A DNA stretch of 55,377 nt from Flavobacteriales bacterium (GTDB taxonomy: Bacteria > Bacteroidota > Bacteroidia > Flavobacteriales_F > PHOS-HE28): the NCBI GenBank assembly GCA_016788285.1, contig JAEUSW010000177.1, positions 1 through 55,377 of the forward strand, written 5' to 3'. Of the stretch, positions 45,051 through 55,377 are shown one piece after another. The notes below the pieces were generated by a model. That model was not told the origin of the DNA. It did no database searches and was given only the letters and a program-made list of their open reading frames with translations. The position numbers were made by a program, and so were the translations under genes. How positions within the stretch are numbered: position 1 is the first letter of the stretch; the number at the start of each line of letters is the position of its first letter.

Positions 45051-45866
45051 TCATGCAGGTCCAGGGTCCACGGAGCTGGCCGGCGGCACCGTGTCGAAGA
45101 GCACCACATGATGGAACGGATCGCGAATGCCGTTGATGCGGTCCATCAGGGCCTTCCAGACACCGGGCCGTCGCAGGTGGTGGTGAGGACCGGCCGCCTG
45201 CACGTCGCAGAGGGCATGGGCGTGGTAGTTCGCCGCAAGCTGAGGGACACCAAGGGCCGCGTAGTAGGCGGCGGAGCGCGCCGATGCGGCCGCGGCCGCA
45301 TCGGCGTCGGGATAGAGCATCGTGTCCATCACGTGCACTTCGCCGGACGGCGCAAGCGCACGTGCCCGGCGCAGCGTGGCACGGGCGTCGGCGAAGTACT
45401 GGAAGCTGGCTGCGAAGAGCACGACATCGAACCGGAGACCATCGAGCGCGGGATGGAAGAGGTCGGCCAAGGCGAAGCGCGGCCCGTCGCCGAACACCCT
45501 TGCCGCTTGTTGCAGCTCCGGCAGGTGGCGGTCGATGCCGAGCACCGCGTGGCCCTGGCGTGCGAGCAGCGCGGACAGCCAGCCGTTCCCGCAGCCGACA
45601 TCGAGCACCCGGAGCGACCTGCCGGAACGCCCCGGGTGCTCCACCAACCGCTGCGCACTGCGGGCCCGCACTTGCCACTCCGCCCGGTGCGGACGTTCGG
45701 GGGCCTGTGGCAGGCGGCTGACCTGTCGATCGTCCAGGATCCGGCCTTCGCGTGCACGCGCCTCGTTGTAAAGACCTCCGAAGGGGCCGGGCGCTTCCAG
45801 CAGCGCGACCCCACCGGCCATCGGACCGAAGGAAGGGTCGATGTCCATCCGTCGTATGGCGTTCAT
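45051..45866 (-). CDS. Class I SAM-dependent methyltransferase
   Basis: VLDVGCGNGW and FDVVLF motifs; ATGA overlap with the upstream radical SAM gene. Confidence 0.88.
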   Translation of the reverse strand: MNAIRRMDIDPSFGPMAGGVALLEAPGPFGGLYNEARAREGRILDDRQVSRLPQAPERPHRAEWQVRARSAQRLVEHPGRSGRSLRVLDVGCGNGWLSALLARQGHAVLGIDRHLPELQQAARVFGDGPRFALADLFHPALDGLRFDVVLFAASFQYFADARATLRRARALAPSGEVHVMDTMLYPDADAAAAASARSAAYYAALGVPQLAANYHAHALCDVQAAGPHHHLRRPGVWKALMDRINGIRDPFHHVVLFDTVPPASSVDPGPA

Positions 45867-47263
45867 GAGGAGAGGGATCGCCAAAGGAGCATCCCCGCAC
45901 GCCCGCTCAGCGCGCGCAGCCGATGACGGAGGGCACGCACGGACGTTCGCCGTCCGGTCCTCGCGGCCTTGTGCCATTCCACCTCGTTCACCACGAAGCG
46001 CACCGCATGGCCGTAGTAGGGCTTTCGATAGGCCCGCGGAAAGTCGAGCTCCCGATCGCTGCCCAGCTCCCAGGGAAGGGGACGTTCCAGGTCGGCCTCC
46101 ACCTGGGCGTGGAGCTCGGTGCCCGCGATGGGATACGCCACGGTGATGGTGAACACGTCCGGAGCGCTTTCCTTCAAGTGCTCCACCGTGCGCAGGATGT
46201 CCGCTTCGCGTTCACCGGGATAGCCGAGCATGATGAAGGTGCCCGTTCCGATGCCTGCGGCCCGCGCGGCCTTGATCATGTCGCGCACGCGTTGCACATC
46301 GACGCGGCGGTCCATGGCGTCGATCACCGCCTGGCTGCCGCTCTCGGCGCCCACCCACACCTGCACGCATCCGCTCCGCTTCAACAGGTCGATCACCGCA
46401 TCGTTCATCCGGTCCGCGCGGGTGATGCACTCATAGTTGATCCGCAGACCACGTTCCTCGAGCCCGTCCGCGAATTCCTGGAGCCAGCGATGGTTCACGG
46501 TGAACACATCGTCCACGAACCAGATCCGGTCCGGGGCATAGCGCTGCTGGATGTCCGCCAGTTCGTCGAGCACCTGCTCGACGGGGCGGCGGCGGTAACT
46601 GAGGCCGTAGACGCCCCGGCTGCACCAGCGGCAGGTGTACGGGCACCCCCGCATGGTGCTGACGTTGATGGCACTGTAGCCGTGCCGACCCCGCCAGGCC
46701 TCAAGGTAGGCGCGCATGTCGATCAGGTCGCGCGCGGGCAACGACAGTCCGGTGAGGTCCTTGAGCTTCTCGCGCTCGGCATTGTGGTGCACGGTGCCCT
46801 GTGCGTCGCGCCACACCGCTCCGTCGATGCCTTCCAGAGCGGTGCGCCCGGCCTCGAACGCGTGGACCAGTTCCGCCATGGTGCGTTCGCCCTCACCCAC
46901 CACGCAGGCGTCCGCACCGTGCCGCAGGAAGCGTTCGGCATGGGCCCGCGTCTCCGGTCCGCCCAGCACGATGGGCAGCGATCGCAGAACAGGGTCCTGG
47001 CGTACGCGCTTCAGGATCCGCACGATGTTCGCCCGGGTCATCAGGTTCACGTAGAGACCCAGGCAGCCGGGACGTTCGGCGCGGAGCTGCTGGAACAGGC
47101 CTTCGAGGGTGCCGAAGGTGCTGTCGTGCACGAGCACCTCATGGCCCGCGTCCCGCAGATGGCCGGCGATGTACAGGAGGCCGAGGGGCGGGTAGGGACG
47201 CATCAAGGCGCGCTCCTTCGCGTCCTCATGGAGGAAGTACCCGTGGGCGAGGAGCACCTTCAT
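45863..47263 (-). CDS. Cobalamin-binding radical SAM protein
   Basis: PYPPLGL, GGP and GEGE B12 domain; RGCPYTCRWC cluster motif; DDVF; GAESGS. Confidence 0.92.
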   Translation of the reverse strand: MKVLLAHGYFLHEDAKERALMRPYPPLGLLYIAGHLRDAGHEVLVHDSTFGTLEGLFQQLRAERPGCLGLYVNLMTRANIVRILKRVRQDPVLRSLPIVLGGPETRAHAERFLRHGADACVVGEGERTMAELVHAFEAGRTALEGIDGAVWRDAQGTVHHNAEREKLKDLTGLSLPARDLIDMRAYLEAWRGRHGYSAINVSTMRGCPYTCRWCSRGVYGLSYRRRPVEQVLDELADIQQRYAPDRIWFVDDVFTVNHRWLQEFADGLEERGLRINYECITRADRMNDAVIDLLKRSGCVQVWVGAESGSQAVIDAMDRRVDVQRVRDMIKAARAAGIGTGTFIMLGYPGEREADILRTVEHLKESAPDVFTITVAYPIAGTELHAQVEADLERPLPWELGSDRELDFPRAYRKPYYGHAVRFVVNEVEWHKAARTGRRTSVRALRHRLRALSGRAGMLLWRSLSS

Positions 47264-48060
47264 GCGCTGCGGCGGAACTGGATGAGGACGTGGTCGCCCA
47301 GACGTGCCAGGCCGGAGGCCTGTGCAAAGAACCGATCCATGCGGCCCAGCAGGTGAAGCAGGCGTGGCCGATGACGCACGCGGGGGCCAAGGTATCCCGG
47401 AGGCACGAACAGGCCGATGGGGCGCAGGTCCTCCAGGATGAACGACGGACCGAACGCATGCCGGAGGGTGGACGGGGGATGATACCAGGTGGGCACGGTG
47501 CAATCGCCCACCGGTACGTCGACCGCTTCCCGGGTCCATCGCCGAAAGGCCGAGGAAGGCTGAGCACGAAGCAGGTAGTAGATCGTTTCGAGCAGGCAGC
47601 GGTCGGCCATCAGCACCGCCACGAACCGGCCACCGGGACCGAGCACGGAGGCGACGAAGCGACCCACACGGGCGAGGCCGTCGACGTCGATGCAGTTGAG
47701 TCCGCCGAGGTCGGAGAGCACGAGGTCGAAGGGACCTTCGCCGGCGGGCAGCGCCGGCGCCATCAGGTCGAGCGGGGCGGTGCGCACCCGCTGGGCGAGC
47801 CCGGCGCGCTGGACCATGGCCCGGGTGGCGGCGATCATGGCCGGGCTGCGGTCGGTGGCCAGGACGGTATGGCCGGCCTGCGCCATGTGGACGGCATCGG
47901 CACCGGTGCCGCAGTTGAGCTCGAGCACCCGCTGGGGCGGGCCCGCCAGCAAGGGGGCCAGGGCGCGCCACACCTGCTCACGCTGGGCCCGGCCGACCGC
48001 ACTGTCGGTGAAGTCGACATCGTAGGTGGCCGCGGCGGCATCGAACGCGTCCAGGGTCAT
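47260..48060 (-). CDS. Class I SAM-dependent methyltransferase
   Basis: FDAAAATYD, VLELNCGTGAD and FDLVLS motifs. Confidence 0.9.
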   Translation of the reverse strand: MTLDAFDAAAATYDVDFTDSAVGRAQREQVWRALAPLLAGPPQRVLELNCGTGADAVHMAQAGHTVLATDRSPAMIAATRAMVQRAGLAQRVRTAPLDLMAPALPAGEGPFDLVLSDLGGLNCIDVDGLARVGRFVASVLGPGGRFVAVLMADRCLLETIYYLLRAQPSSAFRRWTREAVDVPVGDCTVPTWYHPPSTLRHAFGPSFILEDLRPIGLFVPPGYLGPRVRHRPRLLHLLGRMDRFFAQASGLARLGDHVLIQFRRSA

Positions 48061-49496
48061 GCGACGGAGAGGCGGATGCGGTTGGCCAGTACGGCGGGCT
48101 GGTAGTAGAGCAGGGAGAAGCCGCGGCGGAGATCGGTCGGTCCTCCGCGGAGCGCCTGGGCGAGCGCGACCACGGCCTGACGGCGGCGGTAGCGGGCATG
48201 CACGTAGCGGTGGAGCCGCTTGTAGTAGGCCGGTGAGCGGGAGCCGCGGAACATCATCGCCAGGTCGTCGCTGTCGCTCCAGTTCGCCTTGTCGCCGAGC
48301 TCCGACCGCACGCGCTCGAAGAAGGGCGTTCCGGGGAGCGGATAGCTGATGGAAACACCGATGTCATGCGGCATCAGGTCCTCCACCATGCGGATGGTGC
48401 GCTCCACATCGGCGTCGCTCTCGCCGGGATACCCGAACTGCAGGAAGAAGCCGACACGCACGCCCTTGGCCTTCAGCAGCCGGGTGGCCTCGGCGATCTG
48501 CTCCACGCGCGTGCCCTTGTCCATGGCATCCAGGATGTGCTGGCTGCCGCTCTCGGCACCCACCCACACCTCCTCCAGCCCGGAGCGCACCAGCGCATCG
48601 ATGGTGTCGCTCTCCAGCAGCAGGTCCACCCGGCTCTGGATCTTGTACGGGATGCGGACACCGCGTTCCTCCACCAGGTCGGCGAAACGCTGCACCCAGC
48701 CGGGCTTCAGGCCGAAGATGTCGTCGCACATCCACAGGTGGTCCGGGGCCGCCCGGTCCCGCAGCAGTTCCATCTCGAGCACCACATGTTCGGGTGAGCG
48801 GCTGTTGTACCGGTTGCCGTAGATGGGCTTCGCGCACCAGTTGCACTTGAACGGGCAGCCGCGGGTGGTGGCCACGTTCAGGCTGAAACGGCCCTGCGAG
48901 CGCATCCAGATGCGCCGGTAGGGGGTCAGGTCGATGAGGTCCCAGGCGGGCAAGGGGAGCGCATCGAGGTCGCGCATCACGGGGCGCTTGGGTGTGCGTT
49001 GGACCTCCCCATCGGGACCCCGGTGGACCAGGTTGGCCACCGACCGCCATGGCGTGCCGGCGGACCAGTGCTCCACCAGTTCGCGCAGGGCCTCCTCGCT
49101 CTCGCCGAGCACCACGGCATCCGCACCGGCCTTCAGGTAGAGCTCGGGATGGTCGGAGGCATCGGAACTGTTCACCACCACCAGGCAGCCCTGTTGCTTG
49201 CCCAGGGCGATCATGCGGAGGCAGGCCTCGCGCATCACCGTGAGGCACATCTTGGTGAGGTAGTTGAACCCGTCGTCCTGGATCACCAGCACCTTGGGGG
49301 CATGGGCGTGCAGGGCGGAGAGCAGGTCCTGCGGGCCTCGGGCGAGGCCACTGTCGTGCACATGCACGGCATGTCCGGCCTCACGCAGCACGGCCGCGGC
49401 CAGCAGGGTGCCGAGGGGGGGGTAGGGGCGCCCGTCCCGCCACTGCTTGCGGTCGAGGCGATGGAAATAGGCGTTGGTGAGCAGCACCCGGGCCAT
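48057..49496 (-). CDS. Cobalamin-binding radical SAM protein
   Basis: PYPPLG, GESE, RGCPFKCNWC, DDIF and GAESGS motifs. Confidence 0.92.
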   Translation of the reverse strand: MARVLLTNAYFHRLDRKQWRDGRPYPPLGTLLAAAVLREAGHAVHVHDSGLARGPQDLLSALHAHAPKVLVIQDDGFNYLTKMCLTVMREACLRMIALGKQQGCLVVVNSSDASDHPELYLKAGADAVVLGESEEALRELVEHWSAGTPWRSVANLVHRGPDGEVQRTPKRPVMRDLDALPLPAWDLIDLTPYRRIWMRSQGRFSLNVATTRGCPFKCNWCAKPIYGNRYNSRSPEHVVLEMELLRDRAAPDHLWMCDDIFGLKPGWVQRFADLVEERGVRIPYKIQSRVDLLLESDTIDALVRSGLEEVWVGAESGSQHILDAMDKGTRVEQIAEATRLLKAKGVRVGFFLQFGYPGESDADVERTIRMVEDLMPHDIGVSISYPLPGTPFFERVRSELGDKANWSDSDDLAMMFRGSRSPAYYKRLHRYVHARYRRRQAVVALAQALRGGPTDLRRGFSLLYYQPAVLANRIRLSVA

Positions 49497-52236: not shown

Positions 52237-55200
52237 ATGTACCTCAACTGCCACAGCTGGTTCAGCTTCAAGCACGGCGTACTGAAGCCCGATGCGCTCC
52301 TGGAGGAAGCGGCACGGCAGGGCGTGCGCACCTTCGCCCTCACCGACATCCACTGCTCGGCCGGCATCCCCGACCTGGTGCGCGACGCCCCGCGCTACGG
52401 CGTGCGCCCGGTGGCGGGCATCGAGTTCCGGCAGGGCCCGAAGCTGCTCTACATCGGGATCGCGAAGAACAACGCCGGCTTCCAGCAACTGAACGAACTG
52501 CTGAGCCCGCACCTGCTGGATGACGAGGCCCTGCCGGAGCGCCCCCCCGAACTGGCGGATGTGTTCTTCATCCACCCCTTCGCCCACGCGCCGCACCCAC
52601 TGCGGCCGAACGAGCGCGTGGGCATCAGACCCACCGATCTCACGCGGCTGCCCTTCTCGCCGTGGAGGAACAGGATGGACGACCTCGTCGCGCTGATGCC
52701 CGTGACCTTCCGCACGAAGAAGGACCACAACATCCACCGCCTGCTGCGCACGGTGGCGCTCAACACCGTGGTGAGCATGCTGCCGCAGGAGGAGCTCGCC
52801 GGGCCGGACGAGTGCTTCCGCAGTGAGGAGGAGGCGCGCAGGACCTACCGTGACGTCCCGCAGCTGCTCACGAACGCGGAGCGCCTGCTGGAACAATGCC
52901 ACATCGCCTTCGACGGCAGCGACAAGACGCGGGTGGCCTTCACCAACGACCTGCGGGCCGACCGCGAGAAGCTGCACCGCGACACGCGTGAAGGCCTGCG
53001 CTACCGGTATGCGGAGGTGACGCCGAGGATCCTGGCGCGCATGCACCACGAGCTGGACGTGATCGAGCGCATGGGCTTCATCAGCTATTTCCTCATCAAC
53101 CAGGACATCGTCAACCACGCCCGCGGCCGGGGCTTCTTCCACGTGGGGCGCGGCAGCGGTGCCAACAGCCTCGTGGCCTATTGCCTGCGCATCACGGACG
53201 TGGACCCGATGGAGCTCGACCTGTACTTCGAGCGCTTCATCAACCCCGCGCGCAAGAAGCCGCCCGACTTCGACATCGACTTCAGCTGGAAGGACCGCGA
53301 TGAGGTGTACCGCTACGTGTTCGACAAGTACAACACGCCGGACGGCCGTGCGGGCGGGATCCACGCCGCGCAGATCGCCACCTACACCACCTTCCAATGG
53401 CGCGGTGCGATCCGTGAACTGGGCAAGGCGGTGGGCCTTCCGCCGGCGGAGATCGATGCGTTGAGCGAGGGCGACCACGGCTACTACGCCCGCGGCCGGC
53501 CCAGCGCGTATTCGAAGAGCGGCGACCTGGACAAGGTGGCGCGGGCGGTGGTGCGCTATGCGAAGGAGCTGATCGGCATGCCGCACCACCTGGGCATCCA
53601 CGCGGGCGGCATCGTGATCACGGAGAAGCCGGTGACGCACTTCGCCGCGCTGTTCCGTCCGCCGAAGGGTTTTCCGGTGACGCAGATCAGCATGCTGGAG
53701 TGCGAGGACATGGGCCTGCACAAGTTCGATCTGCTGAGCCAGCGCGGGCTGGGGCACATACGCGATGCGGTGGAGCTGGTGAACAAGGCTCAAGTGACAA
53801 GTCACAAGTCGCAAGTCCCCAAGACGAACGCCCTTCAAGCTTGTGACTTGAGCCTTGGGACTTGTGACTTCCGCGAAGCGGTCGACATCCACGACATCGC
53901 GCGCTTCAAGCAGGATCCCGCGATCAAGGAACTGTTGCGCAAGGGCGACACCATCGGCTGCTTCTATGTGGAGAGCCCGGCCATGCGCATGCTGTTGAAG
54001 AAGCTGAAGGTGGACGACTACCTGGGGCTGGTGGCGGCGAGCAGCATCATCCGTCCGGGCGTGGCGGAGAGCGGCATGATGCGCGAGTACCTGCTGCGGC
54101 ACAACGATCCCGAGCGCGTGAAGCAGGCGCCCAAGCGGTTGCTGGAGATCATGCCCGAGACCTACGGCGTGATGGTGTACCAGGAGGATGTGATCAAGGT
54201 GGTGCACCTCTACGGCGGGCTGGACCTGGAGGAGTCCGATCAGGTGCGGCGCGGCATGAACATCCGCTACCGCGACCGGCCCGAGTTCAAGCTGGTGGAG
54301 CGGAAGTTCTTCGACAACTGCACCGCCTTCGGCTATCCGCCCGGCGAGGCCGAGGAGGTGTGGCGGCAGATCCAGAGCTTCGCCAGCTTCAGCTTTGCGA
54401 AGGGCCACAGCGCCAGCTACGCGGTGGAGAGCTACCAGAGCCTCTACCTGAAGGCGCACCACCCGCTGGAGTTCCTGGTGGGCGTGGCCAACAACTTCGG
54501 CGGCTTCTACCGCACGGAGTTCTACCTGCACGAGGCGAAGCGCGCCGGGGCCGCGATCGAGGCGCCGTGCATCAACACGAGCGAGGAGTTGTGTTCGTTG
54601 GTGAATGGTGAATGGCCAACGGCGAATGGGGATTGGCGCCAGTCGCCATTCGCCAACTCCCATTCACGGGCGAAGACGCGCATCTTCCTCGGCCTCGGCA
54701 ACATCAAGAGCTTGGAGAACGGAACCGTGCAGCTCATCCTGCACGAGCGCCGGCGCAACGGCCCCTTCACGGACCTGCAGGACCTGCTGAAGCGCGTGCC
54801 CCTGGCCGTGGAACAGGCGCGCATCCTCATCCGTGCCGGCGCGCTCCGCTTCACCGGCAAGAGCAAGCCGCAACTGCTGTGGGACCTGACACTGCTGCAC
54901 AGACCCGCGAGCGTCACCGCCGATGGCGACCTCTTCACCACGCGCGTGGAGGAACCGCGGCTGCCCGACCTGGAGCACTACCCCTTGGCCGACGCCTACG
55001 ATGAGCTGGAACTGCTCGGGTTCCCGCTGTGCGATCCGTTCACGCTGGTCGAGGAGCAGTGCCCGCGCACGGAGCGGACGCGCGACAGTGCCGGCACGCA
55101 AGGCCAGCGCACGACAGTGCCCGCGCACCGGCCAGCACGCGACAGTGCCCACGCGCAAACGCCCGGTGCGGCAGCACTGTCCACTGCGCGCGAAGGAATG

Positions 55201-55377
55201 AGCGGAGGCCCTGTTGCGCGAGAGCCCCGCGCGGTGGCACTGTCCACTGCGTGCGAGGAAGTGAGCGAGGGCACTGTCCGCATTCCAGCGCGAGGGATGA
55301 GCGCGTACGTGGGCAGAACGGTGGAGATGCTCGGCTACATGATCCACGTGAAGGCCACCACCACACAGACGGGCAAC
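52237..55377 (+). CDS. dnaE2: DNA polymerase III alpha subunit, DnaE2-like (3' truncated; absent from the ORF track)
   Basis: Manual translation: PHP start MYLNCHSWFSF..ALTD, GRGSGANSLVAY, catalytic FERF..PPDFDIDF, YQED and FAKGHSASYA; OB fold begins at the window end. Confidence 0.9.
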   Translation, partial: MYLNCHSWFSFKHGVLKPDALLEEAARQGVRTFALTDIHCSAGIPDLVRDAPRYGVRPVAGIEFRQGPKLLYIGIAKNNAGFQQLNELLSPHLLDDEALPERPPELADVFFIHPFAHAPHPLRPNERVGIRPTDLTRLPFSPWRNRMDDLVALMPVTFRTKKDHNIHRLLRTVALNTVVSMLPQEELAGPDECFRSEEEARRTYRDVPQLLTNAERLLEQCHIAFDGSDKTRVAFTNDLRADREKLHRDTREGLRYRYAEVTPRILARMHHELDVIERMGFISYFLINQDIVNHARGRGFFHVGRGSGANSLVAYCLRITDVDPMELDLYFERFINPARKKPPDFDIDFSWKDRDEVYRYVFDKYNTPDGRAGGIHAAQIATYTTFQWRGAIRELGKAVGLPPAEIDALSEGDHGYYARGRPSAYSKSGDLDKVARAVVRYAKELIGMPHHLGIHAGGIVITEKPVTHFAALFRPPKGFPVTQISMLECEDMGLHKFDLLSQRGLGHIRDAVELVNKAQVTSHKSQVPKTNALQACDLSLGTCDFREAVDIHDIARFKQDPAIKELLRKGDTIGCFYVESPAMRMLLKKLKVDDYLGLVAASSIIRPGVAESGMMREYLLRHNDPERVKQAPKRLLEIMPETYGVMVYQEDVIKVVHLYGGLDLEESDQVRRGMNIRYRDRPEFKLVERKFFDNCTAFGYPPGEAEEVWRQIQSFASFSFAKGHSASYAVESYQSLYLKAHHPLEFLVGVANNFGGFYRTEFYLHEAKRAGAAIEAPCINTSEELCSLVNGEWPTANGDWRQSPFANSHSRAKTRIFLGLGNIKSLENGTVQLILHERRRNGPFTDLQDLLKRVPLAVEQARILIRAGALRFTGKSKPQLLWDLTLLHRPASVTADGDLFTTRVEEPRLPDLEHYPLADAYDELELLGFPLCDPFTLVEEQCPRTERTRDSAGTQGQRTTVPAHRPARDSAHAQTPGAAALSTAREGMSGGPVAREPRAVALSTACEEVSEGTVRIPARGMSAYVGRTVEMLGYMIHVKATTTQTGN
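53784..53871. repeat. In-frame inverted heptamer array (CAAGTCA-type)
   Basis: caaggct caagtga caagtca caagtcg caagtcc ... aagcttg tgacttg agccttg ggacttg tgacttc. Confidence 0.88.
54595..54667. repeat. In-frame inverted heptamer array (YGAATGG-type)
   Basis: tgaatgg tgaatgg ccaacgg cgaatgg ggattgg cg ccagtcg ccattcg ccaactc ccattca. Confidence 0.88.
55054..55280. repeat. In-frame GACAGTGCC / GGCACTGTC inverted repeat cluster
   Basis: Four cagtgcc copies at 55057, 55086, 55115 and 55143, then inverted copies near 55174, 55208 (degenerate), 55237 and 55271. Confidence 0.85.

Follow-up and report, generated by a model that had tools for sequence, protein, structure and literature searches.

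A gene encoding a DnaE-family (C-family) DNA polymerase, located at the end of a 55,377-nucleotide contig from a Flavobacteriales bacterium (GenBank assembly GCA_016788285.1, contig JAEUSW010000177.1; the whole contig is "the window" below), contains three palindromic inserts that are read through in frame. All three share one architecture: tandem 7-nt (or 14/28-nt) units, a short center, and then the reverse complements. We consider it probable that they are lineage-specific palindromic heptamer-array repeats, similar to short tandemly repeated repetitive (STRR) or repetitive extragenic palindromic (REP) sequences, which propagate at the DNA level and are tolerated as disordered linkers at three fragile, fast-turnover loops of a weakly constrained, putatively SOS-type polymerase. 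The initial annotation, made from the letters of the window, had called the three repeats unrelated; their unit sequences do differ, but the inverted heptamer-array build is common to all of them.

Three inserts with a common architecture

The window is contig C197 of a 67% GC assembly (360 contigs; 3.62 Mb); below, G000 denotes the window's genome, other G numbers denote other genomes, L numbers ortholog loci, and X numbers sequencing runs. The polymerase frame is open over 1047 amino acids up to the contig end, and the peptides quoted in the initial annotation are present in its translation. Insert 1 (positions 53782 to 53880, + strand; residues 516 to 548) is an inverted array of CAAGTCA-type heptamers with its core at 53783-53870; its arms (53783-53817 and 53840-53870) are 81 to 94% complementary, and it adds ∼26 residues to a native linker of 6 to 7 residues between the palm and finger domains. 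Insert 2 (54598 to 54681, + strand; residues 788 to 815; core at 54608-54667) is an inverted array of GGTGAAT/GGCGAAT-type heptamers, whose arms (54608-54637 and 54638-54667; 77% complementary) abut with a spacer of 0; it adds ∼23 residues in the turn just before the helix-hairpin-helix (HhH) motif, where the native linker of outgroup proteins measures 5 residues (LHGK-type). Insert 3 (55051 to 55296, + strand; residues 939 to 1020) combines 14/28-nt units (CAGTGCC-CGCGCAC type) into one composite palindrome, whose arms extend across 55057-55278, and has direct repeats at 28- to 29- and 63-nt spacing; it adds ∼69 residues in the linker before the C-terminal OB-fold region.

Tandem Repeats Finder (TRF) assigned period 7 to inserts 1 and 2 and periods 14/28/29 to insert 3, and found no other period-7 array in the window contig. 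When folding was compared with that of 200 dinucleotide shuffles per stretch, z scores were −3.64 for insert 1 and −4.35 for insert 2 (0 of 200 shuffles as good in either case) and −2.95 for insert 3 (1 of 200 as good), versus +0.36 and −0.74 for two control stretches within the polymerase gene. Inverted repeats, periodicity, and folding thus confirm an open frame through three palindromes at the places first proposed. Their reported break with the codon pattern of the gene is also evident: GC content at third codon positions (GC3) is 17/30 (0.57), 14/23 (0.61), and 54/75 (0.72) in inserts 1, 2, and 3, respectively, versus 855/919 (0.93) in the remainder of the gene, and the lowest value among 80 ninety-base segments outside the inserts was 0.80. 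Likewise, six motif strings taken from the inserts have no further occurrence in the window, as the initial annotation had stated.

We modeled the protein with AlphaFold2 on a 51-sequence alignment (mean pLDDT, 79; pTM, 0.75). Confidence fell below a pLDDT of 50 at residues 525 to 546, 794 to 810, and 942 to 1013, with confident elements on both sides of each; in this model, all three inserts are disordered loops or linkers. From the alignment with E. coli α and the domain names of that structure, we take site 1 to lie at the palm-fingers junction, site 2 in the turn before the HhH motif, and site 3 in the linker that follows the internal clamp-binding region.

Site occupancy in orthologs

The polymerase gene was present in all 41 genomes searched, and matches in genus members were interrupted at query residues ∼517 to 547, 789 to 811, and 940 to 1010. 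We aligned first 27 and then 42 full-length orthologs (32 clade rows and 10 outgroup rows from other families). Left out were partial or duplicate sequences (L016, L018, L019, L020, L027, and L031), L043 (identical to L010), and 18 of 80 loci for which a pattern search gave no full frame; the clade rows include L030 and L046, which are identical. Among readable clade rows, 23 of 29 carry an insert at site 1 and 28 of 31 carry one at site 2; at site 3, 23 of 31 carry at least 10 extra residues, six carry 3 to 5, and two carry none, the insert lengths there extending from +3 to >+120 residues. None of the outgroup rows has an insert at the sites that could be read (6, 7, and 5 rows at sites 1, 2, and 3). 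Insert-free orthologs are mostly 980 to 1027 residues long; among those from further families, 45 fall within this range and one has 912 residues. Disorder in the model and the lack of inserts in orthologs from outside the lineage are what the initial annotation had expected of elements placed in surface loops. Within the clade, too, the gene is intact without an insert at one to three of the sites in L030/L046, L040, L028, L029, and L047.

Every insert that we examined, at each site, is a hairpin of 7- to 8-nt repeats with a folding energy of about −20 to −220 kcal/mol, and native linkers fold at 0 to −10 kcal/mol. The units belong to different families (CAAGTCA, GAGTGGC, GGTGAAT, GTTGTCA, GGGTGCGA, GGCCACGG, GATCAGA, AATGTAGA, and a 14/28-mer), and single families recur at different sites and in non-sister species.

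Several orthologs show related features elsewhere in the gene or unusual forms at the known sites. L034 has a fourth palindrome, of the GGGTGCGA type, after residue 159, and L017 has a purely tandem 21-nt array at another site of the gene. The outgroup sequence L024 (G037:C18), from another family of the class, carries a 40-residue hairpin insert of its own (−65 kcal/mol) after the equivalent of residue 117; palindromic inserts in this polymerase gene are therefore not confined to one genus. In L031 (G001:C8:138400-138480), the site 1 insert is out of frame and brings in a TAA stop that splits the gene, which is either a pseudogene or the product of a sequencing indel. L032 (G006:C218) has four tandem copies of the site 1 insert together with ∼7 flanking native codons (AVELVNK...REA); this could be local amplification of the element with its flank, and an assembly effect is possible as well. 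Finally, an extension of ∼14 residues, GDHGYYARGRPSAYSKSG (window 53470-53520; residues 412 to 428), is conserved in the clade, absent in outgroups, and modeled with low confidence; it may be an old, fixed insertion.

Turnover between species

Comparison of close relatives at the same three sites, which the initial annotation had proposed, revealed that the fill varies between species. Between G000 and G020, the number of synonymous substitutions per site (dS) is 0.358 for both the polymerase and RadA genes, which indicates that the polymerase was inherited vertically in this pair; only the site 3 insert is homologous between the two. L026, the G020 ortholog, and its sister L033 (dS = 0.23) have different families at sites 1 and 2, and in both of them insert 3 is homologous and either longer or shorter. 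Site 1 of L026 now carries the family found at its own site 3; at its site 2, a GAGTGGC element is present, and nothing is left of the older arms. L003, a taxon that is not sister to L026, likewise has a GAGTGGC-type element at site 2; the L003 array begins beside a native stretch that resembles its unit. Insert boundaries vary by a few nucleotides between families.

The orthologs of G017 have different affinities: its RadA (L117) is 97% identical to that of the window's genome, but its polymerase (L014) is only 61% identical and takes a near-basal position in the clade. Exchange of the polymerase gene between genus members could account for this, as could a mixed bin.

Dispersal in the genome and concentration in the polymerase gene

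A genome search for the repeat units, also suggested at the outset, found that 12-mers of the window inserts are mostly single-copy in the 3.6-Mb assembly; the same kind of element is present elsewhere. In G000, TRF reported 191 period-7 arrays with 117 canonical units and 21 inverted heptamer pairs, and a strict, ungapped hairpin scan (score, ≥18), which does not pick up the imperfect polymerase inserts, found 42 loci versus 1 in a triplet-shuffled control. A gapped scan (score, ≥30) yielded 148 scan windows versus 25 in the control; the 148 merge into 81 loci. Eighteen of these loci lie in frame inside long, high-GC3 open reading frames (ORFs). Six are clearly heptameric, one each in a gene on C9, RsgA (C47), RadA (C66), and a gene resembling LD-carboxypeptidase (C78) and two in the polymerase; one in PyrD (C258) is borderline. 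Insert 3 is missing from this count solely because of a filter on distance to the contig end. The other eleven are nonheptameric palindromes in assorted genes (encoding a nonribosomal peptide synthetase, a type IX secretion system protein, TrkH, a histidine kinase, and others), none of them repair genes, and several may be due to chance, since the control gave 25 windows where the real sequence gave 148.

The polymerase gene makes up 0.09% of the assembly and is therefore strongly overrepresented for in-frame heptamer palindromes. This disproportionate share, two of six, agrees with its description in the initial annotation as a possible insertion sink. The companion claim, that several families of elements converge on this one gene, needs amendment: the share in the gene is high, but the hot spots are genus-wide, and elements of the same kind occur in other genes and in intergenic DNA.

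GAGTGGC palindromes illustrate the dispersal. They lie in frame in RadA, RsgA, PyrD, the LD-carboxypeptidase-like gene, and others and also occur between genes. A 14-mer of this family, GAGTGGCGAGTGGC, has 9 exact copies in G000, 26 in G020, and 14 in G003, and it is absent from 15 of the 24 other genus genomes and 15 of the 16 other-family genomes searched; GAGTGGC is thus a family that proliferated in G020, G003, and G000. In RadA (G000:C66:43141-44610), the in-frame GAGTGGC-type palindrome follows the Walker A region and is common to G000 and G020 only; 28 other RadA genes of the genus have a short, variable loop at that position. Since the RadA insert is limited to these two genomes, persistent genus-wide occupancy is special to the polymerase.

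The polymerase gene and its constraint

We assigned the gene (52237 to 55377, + strand) to the DnaE family from Pfam, NCBIfam, and structure matches. Its Pfam domains, PHP (PF02811), DNA_pol3_alpha (PF07733), DNA_pol3_finger (PF17657), and HHH_6 (PF14579), make up the C-family set (PHP, palm/NTPase, fingers, and HhH), and its best solved relative is E. coli polymerase III α (5FKU; E = 3.9e-88). D344, D346, and D498 are invariant across the 51 aligned sequences; given the alignment to 5FKU and the residue numbering of the E. coli enzyme, these presumably correspond to the E. coli catalytic aspartates. A longer DnaE, a 1241-residue open frame with ∼33% identity, is encoded on C290 of the same assembly, which makes the window gene a second, shorter copy. 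The gene lacks its 3′ end because the contig stops, ∼100 nt past insert 3; we sought the missing end elsewhere in the assembly and did not find it.

The polymerase scores below the cutoff of both the NCBIfam error-prone subfamily NF004225 (474.7 bits; cutoff, 939) and the replicative DnaE equivalog NF004226 (509.8 bits; cutoff, 1002). Among the window neighbors, imuB is absent beside or upstream of the gene; upstream are radical-SAM genes and a membrane protein of unknown function. In two relatives, a divergent LexA-like gene with HTH_3 and Peptidase_S24 domains lies directly upstream of the polymerase (L033:3077-3907 and L050:3155-3937, both − strand). The L033 polymerase is 90% identical over the first 514 residues, and its downstream neighbor is convergent; L050 is from a Flavobacteriaceae genome. 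The G000 homolog of the LexA-like gene is at a contig edge (C103:2-496), not beside the polymerase. Thus, "DnaE2-like," the name given in the initial annotation, is reasonable but unproven: the domains and the second, shorter copy favor it, but the scores fall below both cutoffs and imuB does not adjoin. We keep it as a label.

The polymerase is under purifying but relaxed selection, as the initial annotation had surmised. For G000 and G020, the ratio of nonsynonymous to synonymous substitution rates (dN/dS) is 0.234 over 973 codons of the polymerase versus 0.037 over 471 codons of RadA; outside the inserts, seven species pairs gave polymerase ratios of 0.12 to 0.24, and one further pair gave 0.07.

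Origin and maintenance of the inserts

The explanation that we favor begins with small palindromic repeats that would be of noncoding origin, each consisting of two tandem heptamer arrays in opposite orientation on either side of a variable center, and that would spread or expand at the DNA level in the genomes of an uncultured, high-GC Flavobacteriales genus. In-frame read-through adds 23 to 69 residues of disordered loop at three interdomain linkers, where elements may persist because additional disordered residues are tolerated there and constraint on the gene is weak. A resident palindrome may be unstable (prone to deletion or breakage) and may at the same time attract or seed its successor preferentially, which would account for replacement of its content in situ by whichever family was then proliferating in the species. 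On this view, the hairpin would belong to the DNA element itself, and selection would not be acting on it as an mRNA structure.

A number of observations weigh against this explanation. Copies of one family have common arms and differing centers and unit numbers, a poor fit to simple cut-or-copy transposition of a fixed element. We identified no mobilizing enzyme; the candidates are two weak matches to the Y1 transposase family (PF01797) on C251 and C8 (30.7 and 27.8 bits), which nothing ties to the inserts. The three inserts are not flanked by any target-site duplication of ≥6 nt, and none of them contains GTAG/CTAC or CGTC, so that the GTAG tag is missing (GACG occurs once in each insert, away from the symmetric ends). 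The units of the window inserts are nearly single-copy in G000 and therefore do not come from a family now active there. Near-universal occupancy of site 2 (28/31) and conservation of a short core across units and species (below) could be due to selection or to concerted evolution instead of being tolerated neutrally. As for the numbers themselves, occupancy counts such as 28/31 overstate the number of events since clade members are kin and not independent, and the enrichment of the polymerase gene is a post hoc estimate from a 360-contig assembly that may underassemble repeats.

We regard it as doubtful, but worth weighing, that the inserts are selected features, namely, mRNA or single-stranded DNA hairpins or disordered linkers that adjust how strongly a mutagenic polymerase is expressed or how active it is and thereby keep the sites occupied. 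The high occupancy in the clade, most of all at site 2, is in keeping with this, as is the fact that the inserts are palindromic whichever family fills a site, although their sequences turn over. Among eight homologous site 1 inserts, the 4-nt core of the unit, CAAG/CTTG, is almost invariant, and the other three positions vary and often mismatch. Since this core falls in all three codon phases, it is conserved at the nucleotide level; slippage homogenization, gene conversion, or recognition by a protein could each be responsible. Double changes affect 4 of the 27 pairs predicted in these eight inserts, but the covariation term of their consensus fold is positive (+3.06), that is, unfavorable. 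The REP survey of Di Nocera et al. (PMC3733652) includes the speculation that REP inserts modify repair proteins. The arms speak differently: of 71 inserts collected from orthologs, we counted mismatches in the 59 with ≥14 paired positions and found 101 G/T, 173 A/C, and 415 transversion-type mismatches versus 1,762 Watson-Crick pairs, related inserts not being independent. There is no excess of G-U-compatible (wobble) pairs on the sense strand, and hence nothing in these counts points to a selected mRNA hairpin or supports the suggestion in the initial annotation that hairpins may tune expression. Nor would selection readily explain an intact gene in the orthologs that lack inserts at one to three sites, the wide range of lengths at site 3, or the presence of the same elements in unrelated genes and in intergenic DNA.

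It is unlikely that the inserts arose locally, with no movement between loci, by slippage that expands a heptamer seed and template switching that inverts it, independently at each fragile loop. Such an origin would suit family copies with common arms but differing centers and unit numbers, the L003 array that starts beside a unit-like native stretch, the local amplification seen in the four tandem copies of L032, and the purely tandem array of L017. It does not account well for GAGTGGC, which is present at many unlinked loci in several species (9, 26, and 14 copies of the 14-mer) and nearly nowhere else that we searched, for the occurrence of one family at different polymerase sites in non-sister species, or for a ready-made GAGTGGC palindrome in RadA of the two closest species only.

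We also considered, as quite improbable, that heptamer palindromes are scars of break repair: a hairpin-prone site would break, synthesis that is either templated or prone to slippage would extend both 3′ ends with the same 7-nt repeat, and the ends would be joined. If true, this would explain why inverted arrays surround a variable junction, and also units that are specific to a species, differences in unit number, missing target-site duplications, and complete replacement in situ at fragile loops, and gain or loss of one 7-nt unit could switch the polymerase frame off or on. Compatible with it are the variable centers and unit counts, the lack of flanking duplications, the clean replacement between sisters, the out-of-frame insert of G001, and, weakly, the G-rich 5′ arms. 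The 5′ arm is more often G- or purine-rich (24 versus 10 unit families; 54 versus 22 elements), a trend that is weak because unit families are not independent and that, judged by eye, would be lost if related units were collapsed.

Other classes of element were rejected. Against an intein or intron are the size of the inserts (23 to 69 residues), the lack of any further Pfam domain, contigs from RNA libraries that cross the junctions of insert 3, and the lack of joints that skip an insert. We rejected translational bypass and CRISPR, like the intein and intron, on the size of the inserts, a frame that stays open, and the lack of any spacer-repeat structure. A miniature inverted-repeat transposable element does not fit: although the whole element is an inverted repeat, there is no flanking direct repeat of ≥6 nt, and centers and unit numbers differ between copies.

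The inserts in independent assemblies

That chimeric joins at repeats, or misbinning, in a fragmented metagenome-assembled genome created the inserts is hardly credible: 360 contigs, a contig end ∼100 nt past insert 3, and a 3′ gene end missing from the assembly would be in line with such an artifact, but the inserts are present in independent metagenome assemblies, and orthologs from many further assemblies have in-frame inserts at the corresponding positions. Between 86 and 94% of the sampled words are present in 14 DNA runs, which come from at least seven studies. A 27-kb DNA contig of X2, which may be the source sample, spans the whole stretch in question with 2 differences, and contigs from another study (X7) span 53700-53902 and 54516-55377 with 0 differences; the artifact that the initial annotation had held out as a refutation therefore finds no support in contigs from two studies. 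In RNA-library contigs of X15 and X16, flanking coding sequence continues into insert 3 at either end. We saw no joints skipping the inserts in contigs of four runs, a form of evidence that is unable to show rare variants or prove transcription. Parts of inserts 1 and 2 have no coverage in the RNA-library contigs; we draw no inference from this, because gaps in contigs prove nothing.

X7 has loose ends at window positions 53882 and 54638. At 53882, the right flank of site 1 runs, in this sludge metagenome, into a CATTCGCC-type repeat, which suggests that a relative in the same community bears another element at site 1.

Relation to known repeats

The phenomenon is of a known kind, since in-frame palindromes in repair genes, DnaE2 included, have been published already (Di Nocera et al. 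2013, BMC Genomics 14:522; PMC3733652). That survey reports REPs inside genes of several species, many of them genes of replication or repair, with error-prone DnaE2 named among them, and notes that such genes can be a species' only REP-tagged coding sequences. Intragenic REPs encode 20 to 80 extra residues, often as dimers or clusters, for which a position in flexible linkers is suggested (PMC3733652). The window inserts resemble them in being short palindromes within ORFs that supply extra residues to a repair-type gene. REPs, as described there, are 20- to 40-bp stem-loops with a GTAG/CGTC tag, often linked to RAYT genes and found mostly in Proteobacteria; here, in contrast, the arms are tandem heptamers, the GTAG tag is missing, the host belongs to the Flavobacteriales, and three orthologous sites show turnover between species.

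The same survey cites the Rickettsia palindromic elements (RPEs) of Ogata, Claverie, and coworkers as in-frame palindromes (PMC3733652). The comparison with these elements drawn in the initial annotation holds for the in-frame habit and for the surface-loop position: like RPEs, the window inserts sit in frame in a functional gene, are read through, and lie at the protein surface. RPEs are fixed consensus elements of roughly 100 to 150 bp from an obligate intracellular alphaproteobacterium. They are not known to show heptamer periodicity or same-site replacement.

The likeness to STRR sequences, also proposed initially, is borne out by the heptameric build (period 7 in inserts 1 and 2). The host here is Flavobacteriales, and the units appear to differ from the named cyanobacterial STRR units. 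Nostoc, a cyanobacterium, also has small dispersed repeats of 21 to 27 nt, which can fold into hairpins, nest in one another, and associate with heptamers.

Published heptameric repeats offer a further comparison. Rehm et al. (2015; PMC4692102) describe dispersed heptameric repeats of Xanthomonas and Nostoc (GGGAATC and GGGGA(T/C)T), some inverted and capable of forming stem-loops, which are mainly intergenic, underrepresented in coding regions, and discussed as G-quadruplex formers. Tandem 7-nt units dispersed in a genome are the shared trait, and the unit of insert 2, GGCGAAT/GGGGATT, resembles the Nostoc unit; the elements in our genomes differ in lying in frame within genes, in being palindromic, and in their Bacteroidota hosts. 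The Nostoc small dispersed repeats are described as very small and possibly mobile (PMC2884548, citing Elhai et al. 2008, Genome Res 18:1484). Long inverted repeats inside translated Nematomorpha mitochondrial genes are alike in placing palindromes within protein-coding sequence; there, both arms encode conserved protein (PMC6649704), unlike the window arms, which encode disordered, nonconserved loops.

We found no description of in-frame heptamer palindromes in Bacteroidota in the literature searched, a search that did not extend to the supplementary tables of PMC3733652, which may list further cases. What is new is that the palindromes are built from inverted heptamer arrays, that the host belongs to the Bacteroidota, and that hot spots at three orthologous positions are refilled between sister species; the first two add a phylum and an architecture to the pattern of palindromic repeats in replication and repair genes. 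Palindromic DNA, whether selfish or generated by repair, can on this evidence become protein sequence in the form of disordered linkers within a large enzyme. The genus amounts to a natural time series, with three orthologous sites and different fills in dozens of species, and could reveal how fast, from where, and by what mechanism elements are gained, lost, and replaced, questions that concern REP, RPE, and STRR alike. There is a practical side as well: inserts of this kind fragment alignments, add to gene length, and interrupt assemblies, and they need to be recognized when activated-sludge Flavobacteriales are annotated.

Additional observations

Upstream of the polymerase locus, two adjoining genes encode B12-binding radical-SAM proteins (window 45863-49496, − strand). 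A separate repeat family is found outside the window: an 18-nt perfect palindrome, TATGTATGGCCATACATA, has 35 copies (≤2 mismatches) on 12 contigs of G000, in arrays spaced ∼115 to 220 nt, with loci at C116:50145-50766 and C292:4675-5340, on C41 and C154, and on 8 further contigs.

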